A DNA stretch of 64,000 nt from Candidatus Moanibacter sp. (GCA_965215885.1 CBDCEW010000079.1:25926-89925), one strand, 5' to 3'. Shown: positions 47,684 to 62,776, numbered from the stretch's first letter. The notes: generated by a model not told the origin, from the letters alone. Numbers and translations: made by a program.

Positions 47684-49170
47684 GGGTCTACAGCAGAATC
47701 TGTGGGTGGGTAACGTCGCTTACAAGAGGAAATAGAGTCGGTGAGCACAAGGAGAAGTCAGGGCGCTGCCCTGAATCCCGCTCCTCCACAGCCGGAGGGG
47801 CTGGTCGGTGTTTTCTTTGCATATGGGATTGAAAGGTTGAAGCACCGGGCCGTTCCGAGGATGAAAGTAGTACCGAAAATACATCCTGAACACGGAGGAC
47901 CCAGTGCTCATCAAAACGCTACTGAATCGGTGCTATTGGCTCAAGAGCTTTGTTTACGCAAAGGCGAGTATGGAAATGGTGAAATCGGAGGAGGCGATTG
48001 TGGTGCAGATTGAGCCGCGCAAGAATAGTCGGGTGGGCTCCCAGTTCGGGGTGTGGCCGGACGGCCAGCGGCTACGACCACATGAGCGAGGCGAGGCATT
48101 TTGAATTTGTGCCCTTGTGGGGGATGAAGGTGTATTTTCGTTACCGCATGCGGCGGGTCAATTGCCGGCGGTGCGGGGTGAAGGTCGAAGAGGTGCCCTG
48201 GGCCAAGGGCAAGAGTCATCTGAGTTGGCCAATGCAATGGTTTCTGGCCCAGTGGGCGAGGCGCTTGAGCTGGGAAGAGACGGCAAGGGTTTTTCGCACG
48301 AACTGGCGCAACGTCTTCGAGTCGGTCGAGGCGATGGTGCGTTGGGGGCTCAAACGGCGCGATATGAGCGGGATTGAGGCGATCGGAGTCGATGAGGTGC
48401 AGTATCATCGAGGCCATCACTATCTCACCGTGGTCTACCAGCTTGACGAGCGGCGGCGGCGGCTATTGGGCGTATTCAATAAGCGCAACGTAAAATCGCT
48501 CTTGCGTTTTTTCTGGGAATTGGGAGCGCAAAAGAGCAGCCAGATCCTCTACGTCTGCTCGGATCTGTGGAAGCCTTACCTCAAAGTGATCAAGAAAAAG
48601 GCACCCCAGGCGCTGCACATCCTCGATCGCTTCCACTTGGTAGCCAACCTGAACAAGGCCCTCAATGAGATTCGTGCTGCGGAAGCCAGGCGATTGCAAC
48701 GGGACGGCTACATCAACGTGCTGGTCAAAAGCAAATACTGTTTCTTCAAAAATCCGCAAAATCTCACCCCCACCCAACAGATCCGCCTCAAGGAGGTGCT
48801 CCAATACGATCTGAAGAGCGTGCGGGCCTATCTACTAAAGGAGAGCTTTCAGCTCTTGTGGCATTATAAAAGTCCCTACTGGGCCCAATGGTATCTGAAA
48901 AAATGGTGCACGCGCGCCATGCGTTCGCGCCTCAAACCGATCAAAAGGTTCGTGCGCTCGGTGCGCAAACACGAGCCGCTCATCCTCAACTGGTTTCGGG
49001 CCAAAAAGGCCTTTTCCTGCGGCATTGTGGAGGGCTTTAACCGCAATATAAATCTCACTATCAGAAAAGCATACGGCTTTAAGAGCTTCGAAGTGCTTAA
49101 GATCGCCCTATTTCATACCATGGGCGACTTGCCTGAACCCGAAATAACCCACAGATTCTGCTGACGAGGC
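47684..49170 (+). mobile_element. ISL3-family insertion sequence with 8-bp TSD
   Basis: TIRs share cagcagaatctgtgggt; direct repeat atagataa at 47676-47683 and 49171-49178. Confidence 0.92.
47904..49164 (+). pseudogene. ISL3 transposase, frameshifted near 48030-48050
   Basis: N-terminus (GTG 47904 after ggagg) is in one frame; the Zn finger and DDE core (IGVDE, CSDLWKPY, LDRFH, VEGFN) are in the 47998-49164 frame. Confidence 0.88.
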
Positions 49171-49716: not shown

Positions 49717-50593
49717 CCTGAGACTTTTCTGGCGTACGGCAAAGGGGGTTAGCGGACGATGGCCTAACGTATAATGGAGGTAGAAGCGGGCTTGGAAGAA
49801 ACCCACCCCTGTCCCCTCCAAGGAGGGGAACTTAATGAATGAGCTACCAAGCGAACAGATCCCCTCCTGGGAGGGGACAGGGGTGGGTCGCCCTCGCGTA
49901 AAGGAGTACACGGCATGTCACGGCGAAACTCCGTCGTACGGCAGAGTGCGAAGAGGGAAGGGTGAGGTCAAAGTCTCATCCCTGTTTCGCTCCTGTCTTC
50001 GCCGTTTGGACATATCCGGCAACCGTCGCGCGTTTTGGGGGTGACAGTTTTAGCGATCGATGAAAGTTCCGAATTCATGATGAGAAGAATTGGATATTTG
50101 GGACGTGCTATTGCAGCGGGCACACTGATCAGCGCGGAGATAGCGATTGGGGGTGAGTACGAGGTGAGAGAAGAGCGCGCTGTGCTGGAAGGGGGTATTG
50201 TCGGGATTGTTGCACAACCGGAGGGGGTAAGCGATGCGCCCGCGGCGGACACTATGGCTTTTGTAAATGCTGCCGGCGGATCATTGAAGGAAGGCGTTAT
50301 CATCGGGTGCGAAGGCCACATTTTTGAGGTGTTGACCGAAGATCAGAGTAAAGCTGAACGGGTGCAGGAGAAAACGATCGTGCGGCCATTTTGAGCTTCT
50401 ATGTCCAGCTCGCTAGGGCGTTCCAGAATTGAATAGCCCGCTTTTCCTTGCCGGCAAAGACGGTAGCACAGGCAGAATCTTGCTGTTGCTCGAGCGTCTT
50501 CGAAAATCCGTGAGAAAAGCGGGCCAGGGGTGGGTTCTTTCCTATCCAGTTCCCTCCTCTAAAGTACGTCAGCTCATCGATGAATAGATTCGC

Positions 50594-52003
50594 TTGATTG
50601 GCGATTGGGCTATTAGTTTTTTTCAGAGAGTGGAATTGAAACGCAGGATATCAACCATTGGCGGAGAATCTGGGCCGGATGGCCGGGATATCTATGCCTG
50701 GTACGTCGTTATTCTCTTTGCTTGCTTCTATATGCTCTCATTTGTCGACCGGCTCATAGTGGGACTCCTGGTGGAACCGATTAAAGCCGATTTAGGACTT
50801 TCCGACACCCAGATCAGTCTCGTTCACGGCTTCAGTTTCGCTTTGTTCTATACCGTATTTGGACTTTTCATGGGTCGGCTTGCGGATCTGTTCAATCGCC
50901 GAAACCTGATCGCGGCCGGTGTCGTGACCTGGAGTTTGCTGACGATACTTTGCGGAGCGGCTTCGCGTTACTGGCATCTCCTGGTGCTTCGAAGCGGAGT
51001 GGGAATTGGAGAGGCGACGCTGACTCCGGCGGCCTACTCAATTATCAGCGACTATTTCACCAAGGCGAGGCGCTCAACGGCCCTCAGCGTCTTTTCGGCG
51101 GGGGTCTACTTTGGTATTGCAGCCGCTTTTACGGGTGGAGCCTATCTCTATCGATTTTTCGAATCGTGGCTCGATGCGAAGGGGGGACTCACGCTACCTT
51201 TTCTGGGTGATGTTGCGGCGTGGCAACTTGTGTTTGTGGCGGTCGGTGTCCCCGGGCTTCTCCTTTCGAGTTTACTGATTACGGTACGCGAACCGATACG
51301 CACTTCCGATCGCAGGTCTGGTGACGGCGACAGTCTCGGTCCCGAGCCATTTCATGCTGTTCTCAGATACTTTCGCAGGCACTGGAGATCAGTACTTGGC
51401 CACAATATGGGTATCGCTCTAATTTCGGCTTCCGCCTATTCCAGGGACCTTTGGAATGTCGCCTTCTTCGAGAGGACCTACGGTTGGAAGTTGTACGAAT
51501 CCGGACCCTGGTATGGAGGGATCGTCCTTTTGGCGGGTGTGTTGGGAGTTTACACAGGAGGACGAATTGCAGATCGGCTGGCACAACGAAAGATTGTAAC
51601 AGCCATGCTGATCATGCTGATCGCAGTCGTCGGTTGGCTTCCGTTTGGAATGGCCTACCCGCTCATGCCCACTGCCGAGCTGTCCTTACTGTGTCTCTTT
51701 CCCGCGATATTCATGACTTCGATGCCCTACGGATGCGCGGCAGCGGCAATTCAGGAAATGATGCCTCCCAGGATGCGCGGGTTCGCCTCGGCACTGATGC
51801 TGTCCGCAAATAGCATAATCGGTTTGGGGCTCGGTCCGACTCTTGTCGCTCTGGCTACCGATTACCTGTTCGGTTACGAAAGCGCGCTCCGATATTCTCT
51901 GATATTCGTCTGCGGAGCATTTCATGTGATCGGCGCCATTTTTCTCTACTGGGCTATGAAACCCTTCAGGCAGACGGTCGAAGAACTCGCCGAAATCCGT
52001 TAG
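50594..52003 (+). CDS. MFS transporter (spinster-like)
   Basis: SFVDRLIVGLLVEPIKADLGLSD, GRLADLFNRR, GVGIGEA; start position uncertain. Confidence 0.9.
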   Translation: MIGDWAISFFQRVELKRRISTIGGESGPDGRDIYAWYVVILFACFYMLSFVDRLIVGLLVEPIKADLGLSDTQISLVHGFSFALFYTVFGLFMGRLADLFNRRNLIAAGVVTWSLLTILCGAASRYWHLLVLRSGVGIGEATLTPAAYSIISDYFTKARRSTALSVFSAGVYFGIAAAFTGGAYLYRFFESWLDAKGGLTLPFLGDVAAWQLVFVAVGVPGLLLSSLLITVREPIRTSDRRSGDGDSLGPEPFHAVLRYFRRHWRSVLGHNMGIALISASAYSRDLWNVAFFERTYGWKLYESGPWYGGIVLLAGVLGVYTGGRIADRLAQRKIVTAMLIMLIAVVGWLPFGMAYPLMPTAELSLLCLFPAIFMTSMPYGCAAAAIQEMMPPRMRGFASALMLSANSIIGLGLGPTLVALATDYLFGYESALRYSLIFVCGAFHVIGAIFLYWAMKPFRQTVEELAEIR

Positions 52004-52452
52004 GAATCTGTCGGACTTTGTGAGTCGATTGCTTTACAAGCACCAAAGTCCGTCCGACAGATTCCTATGAAGAAAATGAAACTGAATTTTGGGAGAAATT
52101 GACTCACTTTTTCTGTTTCACTTGTTTAACTGGCAAGGACAGCGAATGATTTTCTTGGTCACATTGACATATTGGCCCCGAATTCCACATCAAAAGCACT
52201 CTTAAAGTTCTCTTCCAGCAAAATTCAGTTTCATTTTCTTGTTTCTAGTCCCGGAAAGCCGGGATCGGAATGAAACACAGTAATTACTCCGAATGAGTCA
52301 TAAAGTCCGATCCCGGCTTGCCGGGACTAGCCCGCTTTTCTCACGAATATTCGAAGACTCTTGAACGACAGAAAGATCCTGCCTGCGCTACCGTCCCTGC
52401 ACGCAACGATCTACGCCGTCTCGCTACGCAGTGTGTGAAATGTCCGGGCTAG
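52001..52452. repeat. Chain of four abutting inverted-repeat elements
   Basis: 52001-52067; 52070-52240 (perfect 22-bp IR aagaaaatgaaactgaattttg); 52245-52330 (ctagtcccgg...ccgggactag); 52328-52452. Confidence 0.85.
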
Positions 52453-54866
52453 TCACGATCAGGGCGTCGGCGGCAATGGCACCTCGACCTTGCGGGAAGA
52501 CGACGAGGGGATTCACATCCACTTCGCCGAGGTAGTTGCAGGGGGTGATATTGCCGAGCTCGGTTGCCAGGTCGGAAAGCTTCAGTAGAATATCGACGAT
52601 TGCGGCGCGGTCGACCGCCGGATTTCCTCGAACTCCTGTCAGCAGGTCGGCGCCACGGATTTCTGCCAACATTGCCCAGGCATCAGACTCGCTGATTGGA
52701 ATTACTCGCAGTGCTACGTCATTGAGAATTTCAGCGAAGACACCACCCAGTCCGAAAAGCACGGCAGGTCCGCATTGAGGGTCTACTGAGATCCCAACAA
52801 TTACCTCCAATGCCTGATCGAGATCCAACATTTCCTGCACCAGTGTGCCGTCAATGGATTCATCGGGGACGATTGCTCGAACGTTGATTTCGATCGCTCA
52901 ATACCTGCTCATCGGCAGCGCCGGCAGCCTTCATAGGCTGGTCCGCCCGTGGGAACCCTTTTCGGCCAGCGACCTTGCCTCGAGGTAGTTGCCGATCTCG
53001 ACGACGATAGCGAGCCGGATTGAGAATATCCGAAGACACCACCCAGTCCGAAAAGCACGGCAGGTCCGCATTGAGGGGGATCCCAACAATTACCTCCAAT
53101 GCCTGATCGAGATCCTGCACCAGTGTGCCGTCAATGGATTCATCGGGGACGATTGCTCGAACGTTGATTTCGATCGCTTCGTAGGCCTTTTCCAGCGATG
53201 CCTCATCTACGATAGCGAGCCGGATTATATCCGCTTCCGTCTTGTGGGGCAGATCCGGAGAAACCGCCTTCAGGACGACCGGGTAGCCGATCTCCGATGC
53301 GGATTCCCTGGCCTCTTCCAGCGATGAAACGATCCGCTCGGTGGTCGTTGGTATACCATATAGATTCAGGGCATTTTTCGATGCATGCTCCGAGAGCCGG
53401 GGGTGCACGAATTGGGCAATTGCCTCTGAAACCCGATTATCGTCTCGCATCGAGTCGCTTCCGGATTGTTTTTCGTGCGTTCTCGTCGAAAAATCGATCA
53501 AATGAGAAATAGCGCGCAGGCTCTTCTCTGATCCTTGCAGAGTCGGTACTCCTCCGCTCTCGAACACAGCGAGCAATTCCCGGTTAATGCCTGTAGAAAT
53601 GTTGCTGAATACGATGACCGGCTTACTGAGTTTCGCTGCCACCTTGACGACAGACCTCGCTGCAATTTCGTAGAATTCCGCCTGATTCCGGTTCAATCCG
53701 GCCTGAACATCCAGGCTTACCCCAACGAGATCGATTCCGGGGTCACGACCGAGTATTTCAAGAGCACTCGCGTAGGTCCTGTCCAGATCACCATTGCCCC
53801 ATGCATCCAACGGATTGGATATGCTGCTGTAGGGAGGAAGGCAGTCGCGAAGGGCCTCGACTGTCTCCTCCGCCAGTGGAGCAAATTGGAGGCCGACGTT
53901 ATCCGCCAAGTCGGCGAGCATGCCGATCTCTCCACCCGAGACGGCCATCATACCGAGCCCTTTGGCTCGAGGACGATTTGATTTGAGAAAGAGCGTGGCG
54001 GTCTCCAATAGTTCGTCGAGGTCACGTACGCGTACGATCCCGCACTGCTTCAGGAGCGCGTCGAGGACAGCGTTTGAACCTGCCAGCCTGCCCGTGTGAG
54101 ACGCAACTGTTCGCCGAGCGAGAGAAGATTGCCCCACTTTAAGGAGGATGATTGGCTTACCGAGTTTCCGCGCTTTTGCCGCAACGGCACGAAGCTTGGA
54201 GATATTTTGAAAAGCCTCGACGAAGCCAAGAACAACATCTGTATCCTCGTCTTCGAGGAAGAACTCAAGATAGTCTTCGACCGTAACGACGGCCTCGTTA
54301 CCACTGGATACAACACGGTTAAATTCGATACCGCGACCGTTGTTCAGCAGTGCAATGGCTACTGAACCACTCTGGCACACAGCCGATACCCTTCCTTTGT
54401 GAAGTTCAGGAGGAACGGTGGCGCTCAATCCTCCAAATTCACTTTTGAAATTCACAAGGCCGATACAGTTAGGGCCGCAGACAGGCATTCCATTCCTTTT
54501 TGCGATTTTTCGCAGTTCGCGTTGGAGATCGGCTCCCGTTTTTCCGGTTTCCGCAAAACCACTGGCATAGACGATCGCCGAACGGGACCCTGCCTCCACT
54601 GCCAAATTCAGAATCGACGGCACCCCGGCAGCCGGAACACAGATGATTACACAGTCCACCTTTTCCGGAAGATGAGCCATATTCTCATAGCAGGGAATTC
54701 CGTGGACCTCCTTGTACTTGGGGTTAATGGGATAGAGATTACCGGAATATCCCCTTTCGAGCATATTGAGAATTGCCATCGATCCCGGACTCCCCGGGCG
54801 TTTGGAAGCGCCCACTACGGCTACGGAATCGGGGGAGAGTAGATATCGCAGATTAGAAATGTTCAT
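52424..54866 (-). CDS. Acyl-CoA synthetase (ADP-forming, acetate-CoA ligase family), interrupted by a 280-bp garbled duplication containing IS shards
   Basis: CoA-binding AVVGAS, GPNCIG, phospho-His ASHTG, ATP-grasp HKTE and FGLGG..DVNPL. Deleting 52899-53178 restores one 720-aa frame. Confidence 0.85.
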
Positions 54867-54869
54867 TAC

Positions 54870-55571
54870 TTAGCCACGTAAGTCGAACAGACTTCTGCCC
54901 TCCACGAAGTTTCTTGCCATGTATACAAATGGGGTATCGAACATGGCTATGATCCATTTCACGGTAATTTGACCCAGGATTATGGTGAAGAGTACCTGAG
55001 CATTAAATCCCTCTCTTCCCGCGAAGGCGAAGAGAATAAAACAGGTACTGTCGACGGATTGTGAGATAAATGTGGAAACAATGTTTCGAAACCAGAGAAG
55101 ATTGCGCCCTTTATGCATTTCACGAAAGGTATGAAATAACAGAATATCGACGCATTGGCTGATCGGGTAGGCGAGTATTCCGGCCAGAAGGATTCTGCCC
55201 GCGCCATCTTTCCCAATACCGAGGAGAATGAGGGCGTATTCAGCCTGATTATGCCACAAACCTTCAGCGCCCTCGATATTAACAGCGAAGATGAAAAACA
55301 GGAGAGCGAAGATCCGAGCGAAAAATCCAGACAATACAAGAATAAAGGCATGTTTTCTTCCCGCTGTTTCCGAGATGATATCGGTACAGAGAAACGTGAT
55401 AGCATAGAGGCTTGTCCCGACCGGGACCACAAGCGTCAAAAAACCCAGATTCAGCAAATAGACTTTTGAAGCCGTTACTGCAGAGACCAGGAGGCAGGTG
55501 ATAAAGCCGGTTATGCAACAATATCGGATAATCGTTGCTCGAGCAGACTCAGTTTCGATCGAGTTAATCAT
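54870..55571 (-). CDS. Queuosine precursor transporter-like membrane protein (YhhQ/DUF165)
   Basis: FLCTDIISE.G, SQCVDILLF, WFRNIVSTFISQSVDS and MFDTPFVY motifs of YhhQ. Confidence 0.88.
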   Translation of the reverse strand: MINSIETESARATIIRYCCITGFITCLLVSAVTASKVYLLNLGFLTLVVPVGTSLYAITFLCTDIISETAGRKHAFILVLSGFFARIFALLFFIFAVNIEGAEGLWHNQAEYALILLGIGKDGAGRILLAGILAYPISQCVDILLFHTFREMHKGRNLLWFRNIVSTFISQSVDSTCFILFAFAGREGFNAQVLFTIILGQITVKWIIAMFDTPFVYMARNFVEGRSLFDLRG

Positions 55572-55933
55572 GGGACCTCGACGATGACCCGGTCATTATC
55601 TATGCGAACGGGAAAAGTTTGCAACCGACCACGCAGAGGTGCGGCGAGGGCGTGGCCCGCTTTCAAGTCGAACTCCCATCCATGCCAGGGACAGATGAGA
55701 ATCTCGCCTGTCCGGTGGAAGCGAATCTCCTCGCCAGGAAGGCATGGCACCGGCGTACCGCTGATTTTCCCTGAGGAGAGGGAGGCGCCCTGGTGTGGGC
55801 AGACGTCGCGCATCGCGTAGAAGGTATCGTCATTGCGCACCAGGACAAGGCGCCTGCCGTCAATTGTCAGCGGATAGGGCTGACCCGATCGAAAATCGGA
55901 AATCGCGCCTACATCATACTCCTGCGAAGCCAT
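55568..55933 (-). CDS. Rieske [2Fe-2S] ferredoxin
   Basis: CPHQGA and CPWHGWEFD ligands; start MASQEY at 55933 overlaps the upstream gene. Confidence 0.92.
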
Positions 55934-57023
55934 AGAATTCGTTGGCATTCGCGGCCATAATTCGTTCGCGGAGGTCTTTAGGGATGCTTGGAGGCAAGGA
56001 GCGATTGGGGGCGTCGAAATCCCAGTGGGGGTAGTCGCTGGCAAACAGGAGGAAATCCTCTTTCTGGATCATTTCAATAATCTGGAGGAGGTATTTCGGG
56101 TCGGGCGGCTCTTCCATCGGTTGGGTGGTGGCGCGAAAGTGCTCGCGAATATAATCGCTCGGAGCCCTTTTGAGCCATGGCACTTCGCTGCGGAGTCCCC
56201 GATAATTCTTGTCGAGGCGCCACATGAGGGCCGGAATCCACGCGAAGCCTCCCTCGATGATGATGACTCGCGATTCGGGAAGTTCCTCAAAGACGCCTTC
56301 GCAGACAAGGCTGATGACCTGAGTTTCAAAGGCCTGGGTCATAGCTGTGTGATCTTCGATGTAGTAGGAGGGCCAACCGCATGGTGTGATAGGGTTACCG
56401 CTTCCACCGAAATGAATACCTACGGGGAGACCGAGTTCTGCTGCGGCTTGAAAGATGGGGCGAAATTCACGGCGACCGAAAGGAGCGTGGGAGCGCACCA
56501 GAAGGAGTACTTGAACAAAGCGGGGATCGCCCGCAGTGCGACGGATTTCCTTCGCGGAAGCTTCTGGATCGTGTAGATTGACAACGATCGAGCCTCGCCA
56601 ACGAGGATCGGCGTCGAGCCAGACGGCGGCCATCCATTCGTTCGTAGCGCGCATAAGGGCGTTGGAGAGATCGATATTTTGGACGGCGGATATTCCCACC
56701 AGCGTATTGAGGATGGCGATATCGATATTCCAGGTTTCGAGGAGTTGCTTTTTTGAGAACTCCGGATCGCTCCCGGGCACGTTTCCGTTGGGCGGCCAGG
56801 CATCACGGCGGGCGGCGACTGCGAATACCTTGGGATACAGCGAGACTCCCGGGAGGGGCATTCTCGCCTGGCGAATGTAGGCCTGCCAGCGTGTCGAGAG
56901 GAAAGGAAAGAGGTCCTCAATTGAATTGGGATAGTTGTGGACATCCGCGTCCACGAGAGTGGCGGCGGGTTTATTCGCGGCAGATTCGGAGCGAGATCGG
57001 GCGGGTCCGATCGAGGAGGTCAT
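55914..57023 (-). CDS. Amidohydrolase_2-fold protein, probable dinuclear oxygenase subunit
   Basis: [33 protein letters not shown]; overlaps a Rieske ferredoxin gene. Confidence 0.85.
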
Positions 57024-57052
57024 ACTTGTGAATGTTTAATGGTAGAGAGACC

Positions 57053-57080
57053 ATAGTAGAGAAAGCGGAAAGGCGGTCAA
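57053..57080 (-). promoter_or_regulatory. Candidate sigma70 promoter for the amidohydrolase-Rieske operon
   Basis: TTGACC-16bp-TACTAT on the minus strand, ~30 bp before the ATG. Confidence 0.5.
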
Positions 57081-57194
57081 GGAATTGCCCGGCACTTGAT
57101 TCTAGATTTAGGCTTCAATAAAGTCTGAGGATAATTCACAATGATCCTCGATACGCAGTTTCTCCATCAAAACTCGACAGGGGCTCAGAGAATC

Positions 57195-58295
57195 ATGGCT
57201 GGACGAGCAATAACCATCTTAGGCGGCGGTAACACCGCATTTTCTGTGGCCGCCCGGCTTTCTCTCGATGGACACGAGATTACGCTTTACGAATTACCTG
57301 CCTTTTCTGAGGCGATCGCGCCGATCCGAAAAGAACGGGCAATCCATCTCAAGGGCGCCGGCGGTGAGGGGAGAGCGGTGTTGAAAAGCGTAACGCTGGA
57401 TGCGGCTGAAGCGCTGGAAACCGCGGAGTTGATCCTCCTGATTGTGCCCGCCTACGCCCATCGGCCTTTTGCGGAGGTCTGTATACCGCATTTGCGGCGA
57501 GGTCAAACGGTAGTCCTGATGCCGGGAAACCTGGGTTCGCTGGAATGGGCACGGCTGCTGAGAGAGGCGGATAAAGAGGGGTGGGTGACCTTGGCTGAGG
57601 TCGATACTGCGCCCTATGTCTGTCGAAAGACAGAACCCGACGTTGCGACAATATGGGGAGTGGTCACCGGACTCGGCCTCGGGGCTCTTCCGAATGGCAA
57701 GAGCGAGGAAGTGCGCGAGATTCTGGACGCTCTATTTCCCGGATTGTGTGCCCACCCTGACGTGATGGCTTGCGGTTTGTCTGCCATGAATCCGATCGTT
57801 CATCCTGCAGGTGTCCTAATGAACGCGGGGCGAATTGAGTATGCCCGTGGTGAGTTTTATTTTTACGAGGAAGGCGTCACACCCTCCGTGGTGAAAGTCA
57901 TCGAATCCCTTGATGAAGAGAGGCTCCAGCTCGGGAAGGTGCTTGGGTACGATTTAATGCCGGTCGCGGAAGCGTTTCATTCAGCTGGATTCGGCCCGCG
58001 CGGAGATTTGTGGGAGACGATCAACGGAAGTTGGATGCTGACGAGGCTCAAAGCGCCCGGTTCGTTGGAGAGCCGTTGGCTGACGGAGGACATACCCTAC
58101 GGTCTCGTTTCGTGGGCGTCGATTGCGTCACAACTGGGCGTTGAGACACCGGTGATGCGTTCGCTTGTCGATCTCGGTACAATTGTAATGGGATTTGATG
58201 CCTGGGAAGGTGGCCGGAAAGTGGAAGAGTTGGGGATTGCGGGGATGGAGTTCTCGGAACTGGCCGCTTTCCTTGTGGAGGGTCTAAGAGGATAG
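57195..58295 (+). CDS. NAD/NADP octopine/nopaline (opine) dehydrogenase family protein
   Basis: ILGGGNTA Rossmann motif, MNPIVHP, FYEEGVTP, RWLTEDIPYGL. Confidence 0.9.
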   Translation: MAGRAITILGGGNTAFSVAARLSLDGHEITLYELPAFSEAIAPIRKERAIHLKGAGGEGRAVLKSVTLDAAEALETAELILLIVPAYAHRPFAEVCIPHLRRGQTVVLMPGNLGSLEWARLLREADKEGWVTLAEVDTAPYVCRKTEPDVATIWGVVTGLGLGALPNGKSEEVREILDALFPGLCAHPDVMACGLSAMNPIVHPAGVLMNAGRIEYARGEFYFYEEGVTPSVVKVIESLDEERLQLGKVLGYDLMPVAEAFHSAGFGPRGDLWETINGSWMLTRLKAPGSLESRWLTEDIPYGLVSWASIASQLGVETPVMRSLVDLGTIVMGFDAWEGGRKVEELGIAGMEFSELAAFLVEGLRG

Positions 58296-58527
58296 CGGTG
58301 AGATTTTCGTGAAGGGGTTAGCTATTTTTTGCCCGCCCTTTTTTGTCTATGGAAAAAATGGATTCCGGTGAGAAAGTCGCCATCGCGGAATGCTGGACCA
58401 CGTTCTTGCGAACGCGGCTACAAATATCAACCTGTTACCGAGCACCGTAGCCGCGTTCGTAAGAACGTGGAGGTCTTTCAGCAGAACCAGGAATGAACGA
58501 CTGAGCTCTCAGTCCGAAAAAAGCCGG

Positions 58528-59616
58528 TCAGGCGAGATTCCGAGGAAAAGATGTCAATTTTCGAACTCCGTTTTCCTCGACGAGGTAGTTCTCTTCCAGA
58601 CGTATGCCCGCTTTCAAGGCCGGTCCGTAGAGGCCGGGTTCCATAGTGAAGACATTCCCTGCCTCAAATACTGCATCGTAATTCGGGTTGAGCTCGGGAG
58701 CCTCATGTGGAGCCAGGCCAATTCCGTGGCCTAAATGATGCACCAGTCCTTCGAAACCGTTCGTATTGAGATGCCGATTAGCGATTTCGAAAACAACGCC
58801 GGCCGCAACTCCCGGCTTTACTGCTGATTCGATAATCGGGAAAAGCGAATCGATGATCTCCCAAGCCTCTTGTTGAGCCGGACTCGGGGAACATCCCACC
58901 GAGAAAGTACGGCAGTTATCCGCGAAATACCCGTGCAGCGAAGGCCCTGCGTCCAGAATGTAGAGCTCCTCCGCCTGCATGCGTCGGCGCCGAGGCGGGC
59001 CTCCCATGTCGTTTGAGCGAAAATCATTTCCAAAATGTTCCAAATCTTCCCCTGCGAAGGAAACCGCAGCGGAGCGGACGGCTGTAAACACATCCAACTC
59101 ATCGGCGCCCGGTCTGACCGCCTCACGGGCAGTTGTGTACATAACTTCGGTGACTTTGATCGCCTCACAAATGGCCTCCACTTCGTCGGGAAACTTACAC
59201 TTCCGCATGCGCCGAATGTCCGGGGTCAAGTCAATGATATCGGGACCGCCGAGTCTCGAGATACATCCAATCCCACCGCCCAGGTCCGCTCCGAGTGGTG
59301 CCCCGGCGGGGACGACCGGCGAGAGCTTTTCCGCGACAGCCTCAAACTGGCGACTGTGCATTGTAGCCAGGTAAGCCGCGTCATAGTGAATCACCTCATC
59401 AACAGCTACCGGGTCGGGTTCAACCGCACAAACCAGGGTTGTCTTCCCGTCGGACCCGATAAAGGTGGCTGCGGCATGATGCCGGTTATGGTGAAACCCG
59501 GTGAAATAATAGACGAGATCCCTTCGGGAGATGATCGCTCCGACCGCGCCTCTTTTCTCAAGTACGGCTTGAAGACATTTCTGTCTCTCACGGCAACTGT
59601 TAATGGTTAATTTCAT
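58528..59616 (-). CDS. Xaa-Pro aminopeptidase-like (M24 family) peptidase
   Basis: YFTGF, LDAG..GYFADNCRT, HHLGHGIGLAPHE, MEPGLY, GIRLEE. Confidence 0.9.
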   Translation of the reverse strand: MKLTINSCRERQKCLQAVLEKRGAVGAIISRRDLVYYFTGFHHNRHHAAATFIGSDGKTTLVCAVEPDPVAVDEVIHYDAAYLATMHSRQFEAVAEKLSPVVPAGAPLGADLGGGIGCISRLGGPDIIDLTPDIRRMRKCKFPDEVEAICEAIKVTEVMYTTAREAVRPGADELDVFTAVRSAAVSFAGEDLEHFGNDFRSNDMGGPPRRRRMQAEELYILDAGPSLHGYFADNCRTFSVGCSPSPAQQEAWEIIDSLFPIIESAVKPGVAAGVVFEIANRHLNTNGFEGLVHHLGHGIGLAPHEAPELNPNYDAVFEAGNVFTMEPGLYGPALKAGIRLEENYLVEENGVRKLTSFPRNLA

Positions 59617-59829
59617 CGGCTGTGTCAGGATCAAAGAGACGCCACTCAACCTTCGTCAACTATAATTGCGACGTCCGTGGTATAGGAAGACTCGCTGTCG
59701 TTTTCTGATTCGGGAGCTTCATCGACGCCTCTTCTCCCAAACTTCAGGGTTGGCCAATCGATTCGGATGCTGCCCGTTGAGGAAACGTGCAACATCCTCT
59801 ATGATCATACGGACTCGCGTGTTTCCAGC

Positions 59830-60090
59830 TTAATTCCGGATATGCAGAAACCGGTGAGCCTCTTTTGCGATTTCCGGTTCATGTTTCGAACGCCAGCGCA
59901 GTTTGGCAGCTACAAAATAGGGGTCCGGCCGGTTCCCGGTGCGGTTTACGATTTCGGCGAATCCGAACTGCTTCGCGATTTCGTCCGCTTCCATGCCCGC
60001 CCGCCGATCCATCCAGATGAGTGCTGGGCGAAGAGGCGTGCCTCTTTCGTCGACGGCCAGAAGGGTGGGAGCTTGGTAACAGACAAGACC
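59830..60090 (-). pseudogene. Fragment of an FGGY-family sugar kinase (xylulokinase-like)
   Basis: LAVDERGTPLRPALIWMDRRA...TGN...AAKLRW..HEPE; only ~80 aa, with a REPIN immediately upstream. Confidence 0.75.
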
Positions 60091-60248
60091 CGAATGGAGT
60101 ACCTGAAACTGAAAATAGAGATTCTGTCGAAAAAGTCCCACGTTCTTGCGAACGCGGCTACATATATCAACGACTTACGGAGCGCCGTAGCCGCGTTCGC
60201 AAGAACGTGGGGGTATTTCACCGGAATCAAAACAAGGGCCTGACCCTA

Positions 60249-61430
60249 TCACTCCCTGTTTACGACGTCCCGTTCGTCGGGTCCGACAAGATACATACCG
60301 GCGCCCCGGCGGCGACCCCAGGGGCTGGCGAAGGATGTGGGGGATGGCTCATTTACGCTGAACTCCCTCAGTTTTTCTTCGTCGAAGAGGAATCCCAGTC
60401 CCGGCTCGTCGCTCAGAACGATCCAGCCGTCCTCGATTGGGTGCGTTCCGGTGAGGACGGCACTGCGACCGGCCTCGAGGACCTCCATCTCGCAGTGGTT
60501 GGGTAGGGCGGCGGCGAGGTGGGCCATGAAGCTCGCCGGGCAATTCATCATTGATACAGGCACTTCGAAGGCGTGAGCGAGGGCGGCGATTTGCGAGGCG
60601 CCGGTGATACCGGAAGCGTTTCCGCCAAGATTGAGGATATCAACAGCCCGATTGGCGATCAGGGGCGTGAAATCGCTGATATCGTCGAGGTTTTCCCCCG
60701 AGGCGACGGACGCCCGGATACTGTCGGACACCTTCCTGAGGCCCTGCCAATCCCAGCGCCGGGCGGGTTCTTCAACCCATTTTATATCAAACTGCTCCTC
60801 GATGCGATGGAGATACCGTATTGTCTGCTTGGGCGACCAGTACTCATTCACGTCGATCATCAGTTCGGGCGTTTTCCCCGACTTGGCAAGAGCATCGCGC
60901 ATGATTCCAATACGCCGCAGATCGGCATTCAAATCCAACCCGATCTTCAATTTACCTCCACAGACTCCCTTTGCCGCCATGCTCTCATAGAAGTTGCACA
61001 ATTCGGTATCTGTCAGGGGCATGTCGATGCCGCTCGCATACGCCCGGACCCGGCGTGTCGATGCCCCCAGCGTCTTCCAGAGAGGCTCTTTGTTCAACCT
61101 TGCTTTGAGGTCCCAGAGAGCAATGTCGATGGCCGCGATAGCACCCGTGACCGCCCCGCGGTTTCCTCCCTTGAAAACATGATCGACCATCGTCTTCCAC
61201 AGACCACGCACGCCGCGCGGGTCACATCCAAGGAGCAGGTTTTCAACGAGTTGGCTTATCTGTCGGGCTGCTCCAGCTCCACCGATTGCGATTCCGGAAA
61301 CTCCTACGTCCGTATCGATATGCACCGCCAACCCGGCCACAATGTCCCGCCCCTTCGGGCCGTTGGCATCGCCAATTGGACGAGTTAGTGGAAACTCATA
61401 GAGTTGAGTGCGGACTCCTGTGATTTTCAT
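60249..61430 (-). CDS. Mandelate racemase/muconate-lactonizing (enolase superfamily) enzyme
   Basis: IDIALWDLKAR, KLKIG (KxK), metal ligands IDVN / VEEP / GEN, PGLG. Confidence 0.9.
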   Translation of the reverse strand: MKITGVRTQLYEFPLTRPIGDANGPKGRDIVAGLAVHIDTDVGVSGIAIGGAGAARQISQLVENLLLGCDPRGVRGLWKTMVDHVFKGGNRGAVTGAIAAIDIALWDLKARLNKEPLWKTLGASTRRVRAYASGIDMPLTDTELCNFYESMAAKGVCGGKLKIGLDLNADLRRIGIMRDALAKSGKTPELMIDVNEYWSPKQTIRYLHRIEEQFDIKWVEEPARRWDWQGLRKVSDSIRASVASGENLDDISDFTPLIANRAVDILNLGGNASGITGASQIAALAHAFEVPVSMMNCPASFMAHLAAALPNHCEMEVLEAGRSAVLTGTHPIEDGWIVLSDEPGLGFLFDEEKLREFSVNEPSPTSFASPWGRRRGAGMYLVGPDERDVVNRE

Positions 61431-61618
61431 GGGTGGTAAGGGTGACGAATCCCCAAGTGTTTTGAAAGCAAATGTGCGCTCTCAAATAGATTAATCGAAC
61501 GGTTTTCAATCGACTCTTCCGGACGATTCGGTTCAAATAGAATTATGTAATCCAATTCGTAAATACGATGAGGTATGCCGAGGCGAAATTTCGAATTGGA
61601 TTACTAAGGGAGGAAAGA

Positions 61619-62776
61619 TTGAAAATCACGGACATAAAGAGTTACCCCGTCTGGGTTGGGCATCGGAATCAGCTCGTTGTAAAAATCGAGACGGACGAGG
61701 GTATTGACGGTCTGGGCGAATCGGGATTGTCCGGAAGGGAATTGGCGGTTGTCGGCGCGATCAAGCACTATAGGGAGTTCCTGATGGGACGAGATCCCAG
61801 GAGGATGGGCTCACTTTGGCAGGAGTTGTATCGAAGCCAGTACTTCGAAGGAGGAAGGGTACTCTCGGCAGCGATTTCCGCAATTGATATCGCGCTCCAC
61901 GACATTGTCGCCAAGTCGCTGAATATACCAGTCTATCAGCTGCTCGGCGGAAAGCAGAGGGATGCGATACCGTGCTTCGCGACATGCTCCATGCCCTCTC
62001 TGGAAGGGCTGATCGAAAACGCGAAGCTACTGATCGACCACGGTTGGAGTGTGATCCGTACAGGGATGGCGAACCCGCGGGATGAAAGTGAGCACGTCTT
62101 CGAGCCACGTGAATCAATCGGGTTGACGGCGGATTGGCTGACCGCCCTGCGAGCGGAGGTTGGCGCCGGACCAACGCTGGGCATCGATTACCATCATCGC
62201 CTGTCCGTAGCTGAGGCTGCATCGTTTTGTCAGCGGATGCCGAGTGGGACGCTGGATTTCCTCGAGGAGCCGATTCGCGATGAGACGCCGGGAGCCTATG
62301 AGTCCCTTCGCACGATGACCGACATCCCTTTCGCGATTGGGGAGGAGTTTTCGAGCAAGTGGCAGTTCATGCCTTACATTGAGCGCGGGATAACAAATTT
62401 CGCGAGGCTGGATATCTGCAATGTCGGTGGATTCACCGAATCGATGAAAGTGGCCGCGATGGCCGAGGCCCACTACATCGATTTGATGCCACACAATCCA
62501 TTAGGTCCGATCTGCACCGCGGCAACGGTGCACCTCGGCGCCGCAGTGCCGAATTTTTCCTGGCTGGAATTTCGTGTGTCGCCGACGGAAGAGGGGCAGT
62601 TCTACGACGAAGCGATGTTTCCGATACAGTTGAGACTGGAAGGCGATCGCATTGCTGTTCCGGATGGTCCGGGACTCGGGATATCCTTCAACGAAGAGGC
62701 GGCAAAGGAGCAGACCTTCAAATTCTGGGAGGCTCAGCATTTGCGCCGGACGGACGGATCCCACACGAACTGGTAG
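61619..62776 (+). CDS. Enolase-superfamily acid-sugar dehydratase-like protein (DgoD-related)
   Basis: IDIALHDI, IDYHHR, LEEP, IGEE, MPHNPLGP; TTG start after gggagga. Confidence 0.88.
   Translation: MKITDIKSYPVWVGHRNQLVVKIETDEGIDGLGESGLSGRELAVVGAIKHYREFLMGRDPRRMGSLWQELYRSQYFEGGRVLSAAISAIDIALHDIVAKSLNIPVYQLLGGKQRDAIPCFATCSMPSLEGLIENAKLLIDHGWSVIRTGMANPRDESEHVFEPRESIGLTADWLTALRAEVGAGPTLGIDYHHRLSVAEAASFCQRMPSGTLDFLEEPIRDETPGAYESLRTMTDIPFAIGEEFSSKWQFMPYIERGITNFARLDICNVGGFTESMKVAAMAEAHYIDLMPHNPLGPICTAATVHLGAAVPNFSWLEFRVSPTEEGQFYDEAMFPIQLRLEGDRIAVPDGPGLGISFNEEAAKEQTFKFWEAQHLRRTDGSHTNW

Follow-up and report, generated by a model that had tools for sequence, protein, structure and literature searches.

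Dinuclear oxygenases of the ARO family are defined by an N-terminal D-x-H and a C-terminal D-x-P-H-x-D/E motif and number about 17,000, and their use of Mn is predicted from three residues (PMC13154177). The family was discovered through the pairing of AROs with Rieske proteins, and D3EI84 (PDB 8SM7) was found via its Rieske neighbor (PMC10811679). Other described systems include AibH1H2, which with AibG and AibF constitutes 2-aminoisobutyrate monooxygenase (PMC7782822, PMC10401708); SfbO (PDB 8SM6), a cambialistic sulfonate beta-monooxygenase that performs oxidative N-dealkylation on surrogates (PMC10811679); and PtmU3, a diiron hydroxylase of coenzyme A (CoA)-ligated substrates, whose pocket is larger than that of AibH2 (PMC7782822). 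Very few AROs of the low-potential class have a known native substrate. We examined a 64,000-nucleotide stretch of contig C79 of the Candidatus Moanibacter sp. genome GCA_965215885.1 (CBDCEW010000079.1:25926-89925; here termed the window, with coordinates counted from its first letter). A reading made from this sequence alone had proposed that an amidohydrolase-like oxygenase gene and its neighbors, encoding a Rieske ferredoxin, a YhhQ-type transporter, an acyl-CoA synthetase and an opine dehydrogenase, form a new five-gene pathway. Our analysis indicated that the ARO-Rieske pair adds a new member to a family already described and that the five-gene pathway is not demonstrated.

The amidohydrolase-like protein carried the sequences DADVH, IEGG and SDYPHWDF and a PF04909 TIM barrel (146.8 bits against a cut-off of 26.4), and its open reading frame (ORF) shared 20 nucleotides with the Rieske ORF, so that the motifs and overlap described from the sequence stood. 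Conservation was examined in the best 80 of 193 ARO loci found, which came from 79 genomes, mostly of uncultured Latescibacterota, Gemmatimonadota, Opitutales, Poribacteria, Spirochaetia and Chloroflexota, at 50 to 75% identity. The N-terminal motif was present as D27-V28-H29, with the D and H kept in 80/80 homologues, and the C-terminal motif was present as D330-Y-P-H-W-D335 and in 79 of the homologues, the remaining one being cut off. Alignment placed the metal ligands at D27, H29, H204, E257, D330 and H333, with D335 in the second sphere; H204 and E257, which align with H211 and E265 of AibH2 (ligand numbers from PMC7782822), were each found in 80/80 homologues. The residues of the low-potential class were present as a hydrophobic V28 (gamma1), a hydrophilic N106 (gamma2, by our own mapping through alignment to a Thr of SfbO), an aromatic W334 (gamma4) and a hydrophobic F336 (gamma5), with a small Rieske gene adjacent. 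At gamma1, gamma2 and gamma4 the protein was the opposite of the PtmU3-type, high-potential signature.

Comparison with PDB sequences gave 8SM7 (E 5.8e-92), SfbO (6e-78) and AibH2 (4.5e-77) as the best matches, and PtmU3 was matched at 1.6e-18. A structure model (pLDDT 89) ranked the relatives in the same order by Foldseek, with E values of about 1e-35 and TM scores of 0.85 to 0.87 for AibH2, SfbO and 8SM7 and values of 5e-18 and 0.76 for PtmU3. The analogy with CoA-thioester hydroxylation by PtmU3 that had been drawn from the sequence is weak, because the ARO has the low-potential signature and lies far from PtmU3. Motifs, PDB matches and the model all place the enzyme with AibH2 and SfbO, in support of the dinuclear oxygenase first proposed and not of a mononuclear hydrolase or decarboxylase. 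Overall, the protein carries every published sequence feature of a low-potential ARO and is predicted to hold a Mn/Fe center.

A Rieske gene lay beside the ARO gene in 76 of the 80 loci, and three of the four misses ended at most 103 nucleotides from the gene; the pairing with a Rieske protein, noted by analogy with AibH1H2, is supported. The Rieske protein of the window has CPH and CPWH motifs and is the predicted electron carrier of the ARO. Pocket residues aligned to those of SfbO were nearly invariant in the 80 homologues, with K65 in 77, D224 in 78 and H225, M228 and E280 in 80 each. Such near-invariance suggests that the clade has one shared, charged, small substrate, and a small amino acid or amine-acid is our tentative candidate. 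The clade, which may already stand in the supplement of PMC13154177, is the useful remainder of the proposal. The ARO is an orphan with a predicted Mn/Fe center, its close relatives (57 to 75% identity) come from no fewer than six lineages of uncultured bacteria, and their nearly invariant pocket differs from those of SfbO and AibH2. The nearest named relatives of the ARO are in Opitutales genomes, and the host probably belongs to that group. Finding its substrate would add a widespread C-H oxidation to those known. The host genome contained four ARO-Rieske pairs in all. The other three are on contigs C81, C49 and C20 of this genome (G000; L331 to L333), and the C49 and C20 proteins, which keep the sulfate-binding N, R and R of SfbO, are candidate sulfonate oxygenases by alignment.

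The other three genes of the cluster were not conserved beside the ARO. YhhQ, synthetase and dehydrogenase genes adjoined it in 0/80 loci, with 3 kb or more of downstream sequence available in 71 of them and upstream sequence of 1.5 kb or more in 75. The remaining ARO neighbors recurred within single lineages only; in one lineage, genes that we take to be nitrile hydratase alpha- and beta-like lie 1 to 6 kb from the ARO-Rieske pair (L092, L107, L109, L110, L118, L122-L125 and L128). No ARO was found within 9 kb in 80 dehydrogenase loci (the best of 132), in 40 synthetase loci or in 47 + 10 YhhQ loci, many of which were short. Eight genomes of the same family were also examined; being kin, and possibly sharing loci with the set of 80, they do not count as independent. 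Seven had an ARO orthologue (73 to 75% identity), with a Rieske gene beside it in 7/7 and another cluster gene in 0/7 (about 10 kb fetched on each side); a dehydrogenase orthologue (63 to 65%) was present in three of the eight and a synthetase orthologue in four, none adjoining the ARO. An order-wide search found a strong ARO match in 15/301 genomes, and in none of the new loci did a YhhQ or dehydrogenase gene lie within 1.5 kb. The arrangement recurred in close kin only (about 90 to 100% DNA identity).

The sequence-only reading had itself stated that its pathway would fall if the gene set was not conserved elsewhere. Counts of 0/80, 0/80, 0/40 and 0/8 indicated that it is not, and the pathway claim is consequently of little weight. 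A literature search, outside of which most subscription papers lay, returned no paper with this gene set, an absence that reflects a local arrangement and not a new system. The explanation that we favor, and consider quite probable, is that a single lineage brought together the ARO-Rieske module, a block of synthetase and MFS genes, a yhhQ gene from outside and a free-standing dehydrogenase, whose functions are likely separate.

Under this explanation the conserved unit is the two-gene module, which would use O2 and the predicted Mn/Fe center for C-H hydroxylation of some small, charged compound. Electrons from NAD(P)H would reach the Rieske cluster through a flavin reductase encoded elsewhere; three candidate reductase genes with PF00970 matches are present in the genome, on other contigs. 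The ferredoxin may dock at F336 and reduce the dinuclear site, to judge from PMC13154177, after which O2 activation would lead to hydroxylation, or to N-dealkylation as observed for SfbO on surrogates. The transporter, synthetase and dehydrogenase would have reached the side of the ARO by rearrangement and gene import. In agreement with the earlier reading, no second oxygenase subunit was adjacent and no reductase was found among the flanking genes scanned; contig C79 holds a single ARO.

The cluster and its immediate surroundings are set out in Table 1. The presence and close packing of the five genes were confirmed in the window, the four minus-strand genes overlapping or lying 3 bp apart and head-to-head with the dehydrogenase, as first described. 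The gene order is real and not chimeric, because a single contig of run X1 covers 53113-58424 with three differences. The Rieske stop and yhhQ start overlap as ATGA, and the synthetase starts 3 bp past the end of yhhQ. Junctions this close were found for 318 of 1,962 co-directional neighbors in the genome, or about 16%, by crude gene calls. Two additional tight junctions against this background favor co-transcription, and the minus-strand genes, all four, probably share a transcript but not a pathway. The single candidate promoter did not hold up, since its sigma-70-like match (9/12) was at chance level, with 6 sites against 4.1 +/- 1.9 in shuffles. Two X14 contigs of a close relative were also aligned. 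One covers synthetase-yhhQ-Rieske-ARO with 169 differences in 3,995 bases (95.8% identical) and the other covers the dehydrogenase with 126 in 1,196. Both end at 57106-57107, beside CTAG, which we read as an insertion between the ARO and the dehydrogenase. The dehydrogenase has the Rossmann and PF02317 domains of opine/octopine dehydrogenases and most likely starts at ATG 57198, in keeping with its orthologues, and not at 57141.

Table 1. Features of the cluster and adjoining sequence, in window coordinates
Feature	Coordinates	Strand	Product or remark	Evidence
ARO	55914..57023	-	369 aa, low-potential class, predicted Mn/Fe	PF04909 E 1.5e-42
Rieske [2Fe-2S] ferredoxin, small	55568..55933	-	121 aa, ATG 55933, stop 55568	PF00355 E 4e-20
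YhhQ/QPTR (Vut_1) family transporter	54870..55571	-	233 aa	PF02592 128.6 bits; TIGR00697 104.8 bits (cut-off 50.95)
NDP-forming acyl-CoA synthetase, acetate-CoA ligase family, single chain	52424..54866	-	about 715-720 aa	PF13380, PF13607, PF13549
Spurious 280-base duplicated stretch inside synthetase	52833..53112		assembly artefact, breaks reading frame	
NAD(P)-dependent opine/octopine dehydrogenase family protein	57198..58295	+	365 aa	PF02317 E 4.7e-41; PDB 1BG6 E 9.2e-44
MFS transporter	50594..52003	+	tail-to-tail with synthetase	PF07690
Divergent intergenic region	57024..57197		CTAG at 57102	weak sigma-70-like match 57080-57053

Beyond these features, we take the gene at 47998-49164 to be transposase-like. 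Past the dehydrogenase, within 58528-62776, come genes for an M24 peptidase and for two enzymes of the mandelate racemase family, and a fragmented frame near 59830-60230, broken by repeats, is presumably sugar-kinase-like. Short palindromic repeat families occur at 52025-52452, 58395-58470 and 59767-60506, some of them bounded by CTAG; one repeat has about 126 copies in the genome and another about 64. The final codons and stop of the synthetase are supplied by one such repeat.

In the window the synthetase appears as two ORFs (52860-54866 and 52424-52840), split by an imperfect tandem duplication with exact repeats of 66, 47 and 37 nucleotides. This split is an assembly error, because the duplicated stretch is skipped in contigs of three of four runs (X1, X2 and X4, the fourth not bridging there), its removal leaves the frame open for 720 aa and an intact 715-aa protein with 99% identity (P0026) is present in the protein collection. 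A further 15 bases (52536-52550) are missing from contigs of 3/3 covering runs and from P0026 and are probably a second assembly error. The CoA-binding, ligase and ATP-grasp domains of NDP-forming acyl-CoA synthetases are all present, and we take SHTG and HKTE of P0026 to be the two His motifs of these enzymes. The protein scored under every NCBIfam equivalog cut-off, so that no substrate-specific equivalog was reached. The same MFS gene (a 68% orthologue) lies tail-to-tail with the synthetase in family genomes G003 and G005, and the synthetase likely belongs with this neighbor. Outside the family, the nearest synthetase (53%) is found in an Anaerolineales locus, L228. This cluster contains adenine deaminase-like and cytidine deaminase-like genes, two enolase-superfamily enzymes, an NMT1-type ABC transporter, the NDP-forming synthetase, a thioesterase, enoyl-CoA hydratases, an amidohydrolase, an acyl-CoA dehydrogenase and ETF-like genes, and is a candidate nucleobase-like degradation route.

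The que and tgt gene content was checked, as had been suggested. The host genome (90% complete) had tgt, queF, queA and queG over cut-off, while its profile search returned no match for queD and only weak, non-orthologous matches for queC and queE. Such a pattern denotes preQ0/preQ1 salvage, for which YhhQ is required in E. coli (PMC5372724). The host TGT reads GGVSVG, with the Val at the gate of a preQ1-type enzyme, whereas queuine-salvaging TGTs typically read GG[LS][AS]G (PMC11570991). The window yhhQ was the sole Vut_1 match found in the genome. Given the salvage pattern, the preQ1-type TGT and the sole family gene, import of preQ0/preQ1 is the simplest role for the transporter, and on these genomic grounds we lean toward its serving tRNA queuosine in this way. 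Across the nine genomes of family f1 (G000-G008), queC was found in 0/9, one of these being a single contig and 98% complete, yet four had no Vut_1 match; if they have kept tgt, these four would need another Q-precursor transporter.

Several observations weigh against separate jobs and a preQ0/preQ1 importer. The window YhhQ falls in a 19-row clade (SH-aLRT 95 in a quick tree), apart from the YhhQ usual in the family. An Rfam scan of window 50000-60000 detected no preQ1 riboswitch, and the que genes are on other contigs. In clade loci L275 = L276, L277 and L278, the three distinct readable ones with downstream DNA (L280 being too short), yhhQ is followed by a small S-adenosylmethionine methyltransferase (HemK-like), and tgt, queF, queA and queG were found in none of the readable loci of the clade. 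The unusual clade and its methyltransferase neighbors make it possible that the window YhhQ carries a different substrate, and since other families also transport Q precursors (PMC11130926), the need of the host could be met otherwise. The remaining points concern the block as a whole. The ATGA overlap and 3-bp gap suggest a single transcript, and synthetase-yhhQ-Rieske-ARO is retained in close kin, as in the X14 contig. The best-80 lists of the ARO and the dehydrogenase have 29 genomes in common, and the two genes are about 11 kb apart on two related contigs. The ARO of genus g2 faces acs head-to-head, with queA next after acs, and the L228 synthetase sits amid deaminases and CoA-pathway genes. 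Furthermore, the searches recover close relatives only and may miss remote conserved clusters.

The yhhQ gene has a GC content of 46% against 53% for the genome, and a profile of its clade matched 1/401 genomes of the order, the host genome only; the clade is rare and the gene was likely acquired horizontally. Transporter and methyltransferase are possibly an undescribed unit, and this clade, often followed elsewhere by a small methyltransferase, is a second lead, toward a non-queuosine role. The clade loci lie at L275:8092-10305, L277:9-1317 and L278:2101-4185. An unclassified gene of 270 to 295 aa is upstream of yhhQ in two loci, and L275 is in a recombinase-bearing, mobile-looking region. 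In L279 (2987-5120), which falls just beyond the clade, another methyltransferase is encoded two genes upstream.

The tight coupling and the retention in close kin would fit a young, lineage-specific catabolic operon, in which a non-queuosine substrate, acid or heterocycle, is imported by YhhQ, oxidized by the ARO and activated by the synthetase, the dehydrogenase being uninvolved or loosely linked. In G003 and G007 the synthetase is preceded by a sodium:solute symporter, at the place that yhhQ has here, and the best match to this symporter in the host genome is only 27%. The NMT1-type binding protein, enoyl-CoA hydratases, acyl-CoA dehydrogenase and thioesterase around the L228 synthetase, with its deaminases, point the same way, but L228 is one locus. 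No CoA-processing genes were found among the flanking genes scanned here, the AROs of the family lack these neighbors in 7/7 cases and the genome, which depends on preQ0/preQ1 import, has no other Vut_1 gene. We therefore regard such an operon as rather unlikely. We give little credence to its more specific form, in which the imported YhhQ replaced the symporter and, with the Mn/Fe oxygenase and the synthetase, would serve uptake, oxidation and CoA activation of a purine-like compound or deazapurine. If true, this would be the first catabolic role of a YhhQ-family transporter and the first link of an ARO to nucleobase breakdown.

Alternatively, the ARO and the opine dehydrogenase could together break down N-alkylated amino acids from usually unlinked genes, with yhhQ and the synthetase as bystanders. 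The head-to-head arrangement, the 29 genomes with close relatives of both and the two contigs with 11-kb spacing are consistent with this, as is the presence of both orthologues in 3/3 genomes of genus g3. However, the genes were at least 1.24 Mb apart in 15/15 closed chromosomes holding both, and the four g2 genomes with an ARO orthologue have only a 33 to 36% dehydrogenase. A common host range is expected in related, gene-rich heterotrophs, and no dehydrogenase neighbor was conserved above 15/80 loci. This partnership is distinctly unlikely.

Aerobic salvage or breakdown of queuine had also been put forward, with YhhQ importing queuine and the oxygenase and opine dehydrogenase cleaving its secondary amine. 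Some QPTR members do transport queuine (PMC11130926), SfbO performs N-dealkylation on surrogates (PMC10811679) and genus g2 has queA close to the ARO. The preQ1-type TGT and the presence of queF, queA and queG argue against this route, linkage of the ARO to YhhQ or the dehydrogenase was found nowhere else and G003, G005 and G007 have an ARO orthologue but no Vut_1 match, which makes it highly improbable. An ordinary mononuclear enzyme, whether hydrolase or decarboxylase, is a barely credible identity for the amidohydrolase: such proteins share the PF04909 fold, but decarboxylases matched at E 5.6e-15 and weaker and with TM scores of 0.64 to 0.72, both ARO-defining motifs, absent from characterized hydrolases and decarboxylases according to PMC13154177, are present here, all AibH2 ligands align and the Rieske partner is conserved.

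Compared with known systems, the dehydrogenase gave a full-length but distant match to N-(1-D-carboxyethyl)-L-norvaline (opine) dehydrogenase (PDB 1BG6). The transporter resembles E. coli YhhQ/QPTR (COG1738) in its PF02592 and TIGR00697 scores and in a host with the preQ0/preQ1 salvage pattern (PMC5372724), but it scored well under the E. coli-type equivalog NF008406 (25.5 against 252 bits), belongs to a separate clade and has no adjacent que gene or riboswitch. PtmU3 has the fold and dinuclear ligand set of the ARO but is of the high-potential diiron class, with 22% identity, and its likeness gives no ground for linking the ARO to the synthetase. AibH2 is closer (TM 0.86), in that its six metal ligands and the equivalent of D342 align and a Rieske gene is directly downstream of the ARO. 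It has Gln and His in place of K65 and M228; neither an AibH1-like second subunit nor an AibF-like reductase lies beside the ARO, and no aib catabolic genes were seen near it. SfbO shares the organization of a single ARO with a Rieske partner and the same class residues, but its sulfate-binding N67, R232 and R235 are replaced by K65, H225 and M228. D3EI84 differs at about 40% identity by structural alignment, with Ser and Trp in place of the Lys of the P64/K65 region and D224; it has the DVH and DYPHWDF motifs and a His at 225 and is the top sequence match of the ARO described here.

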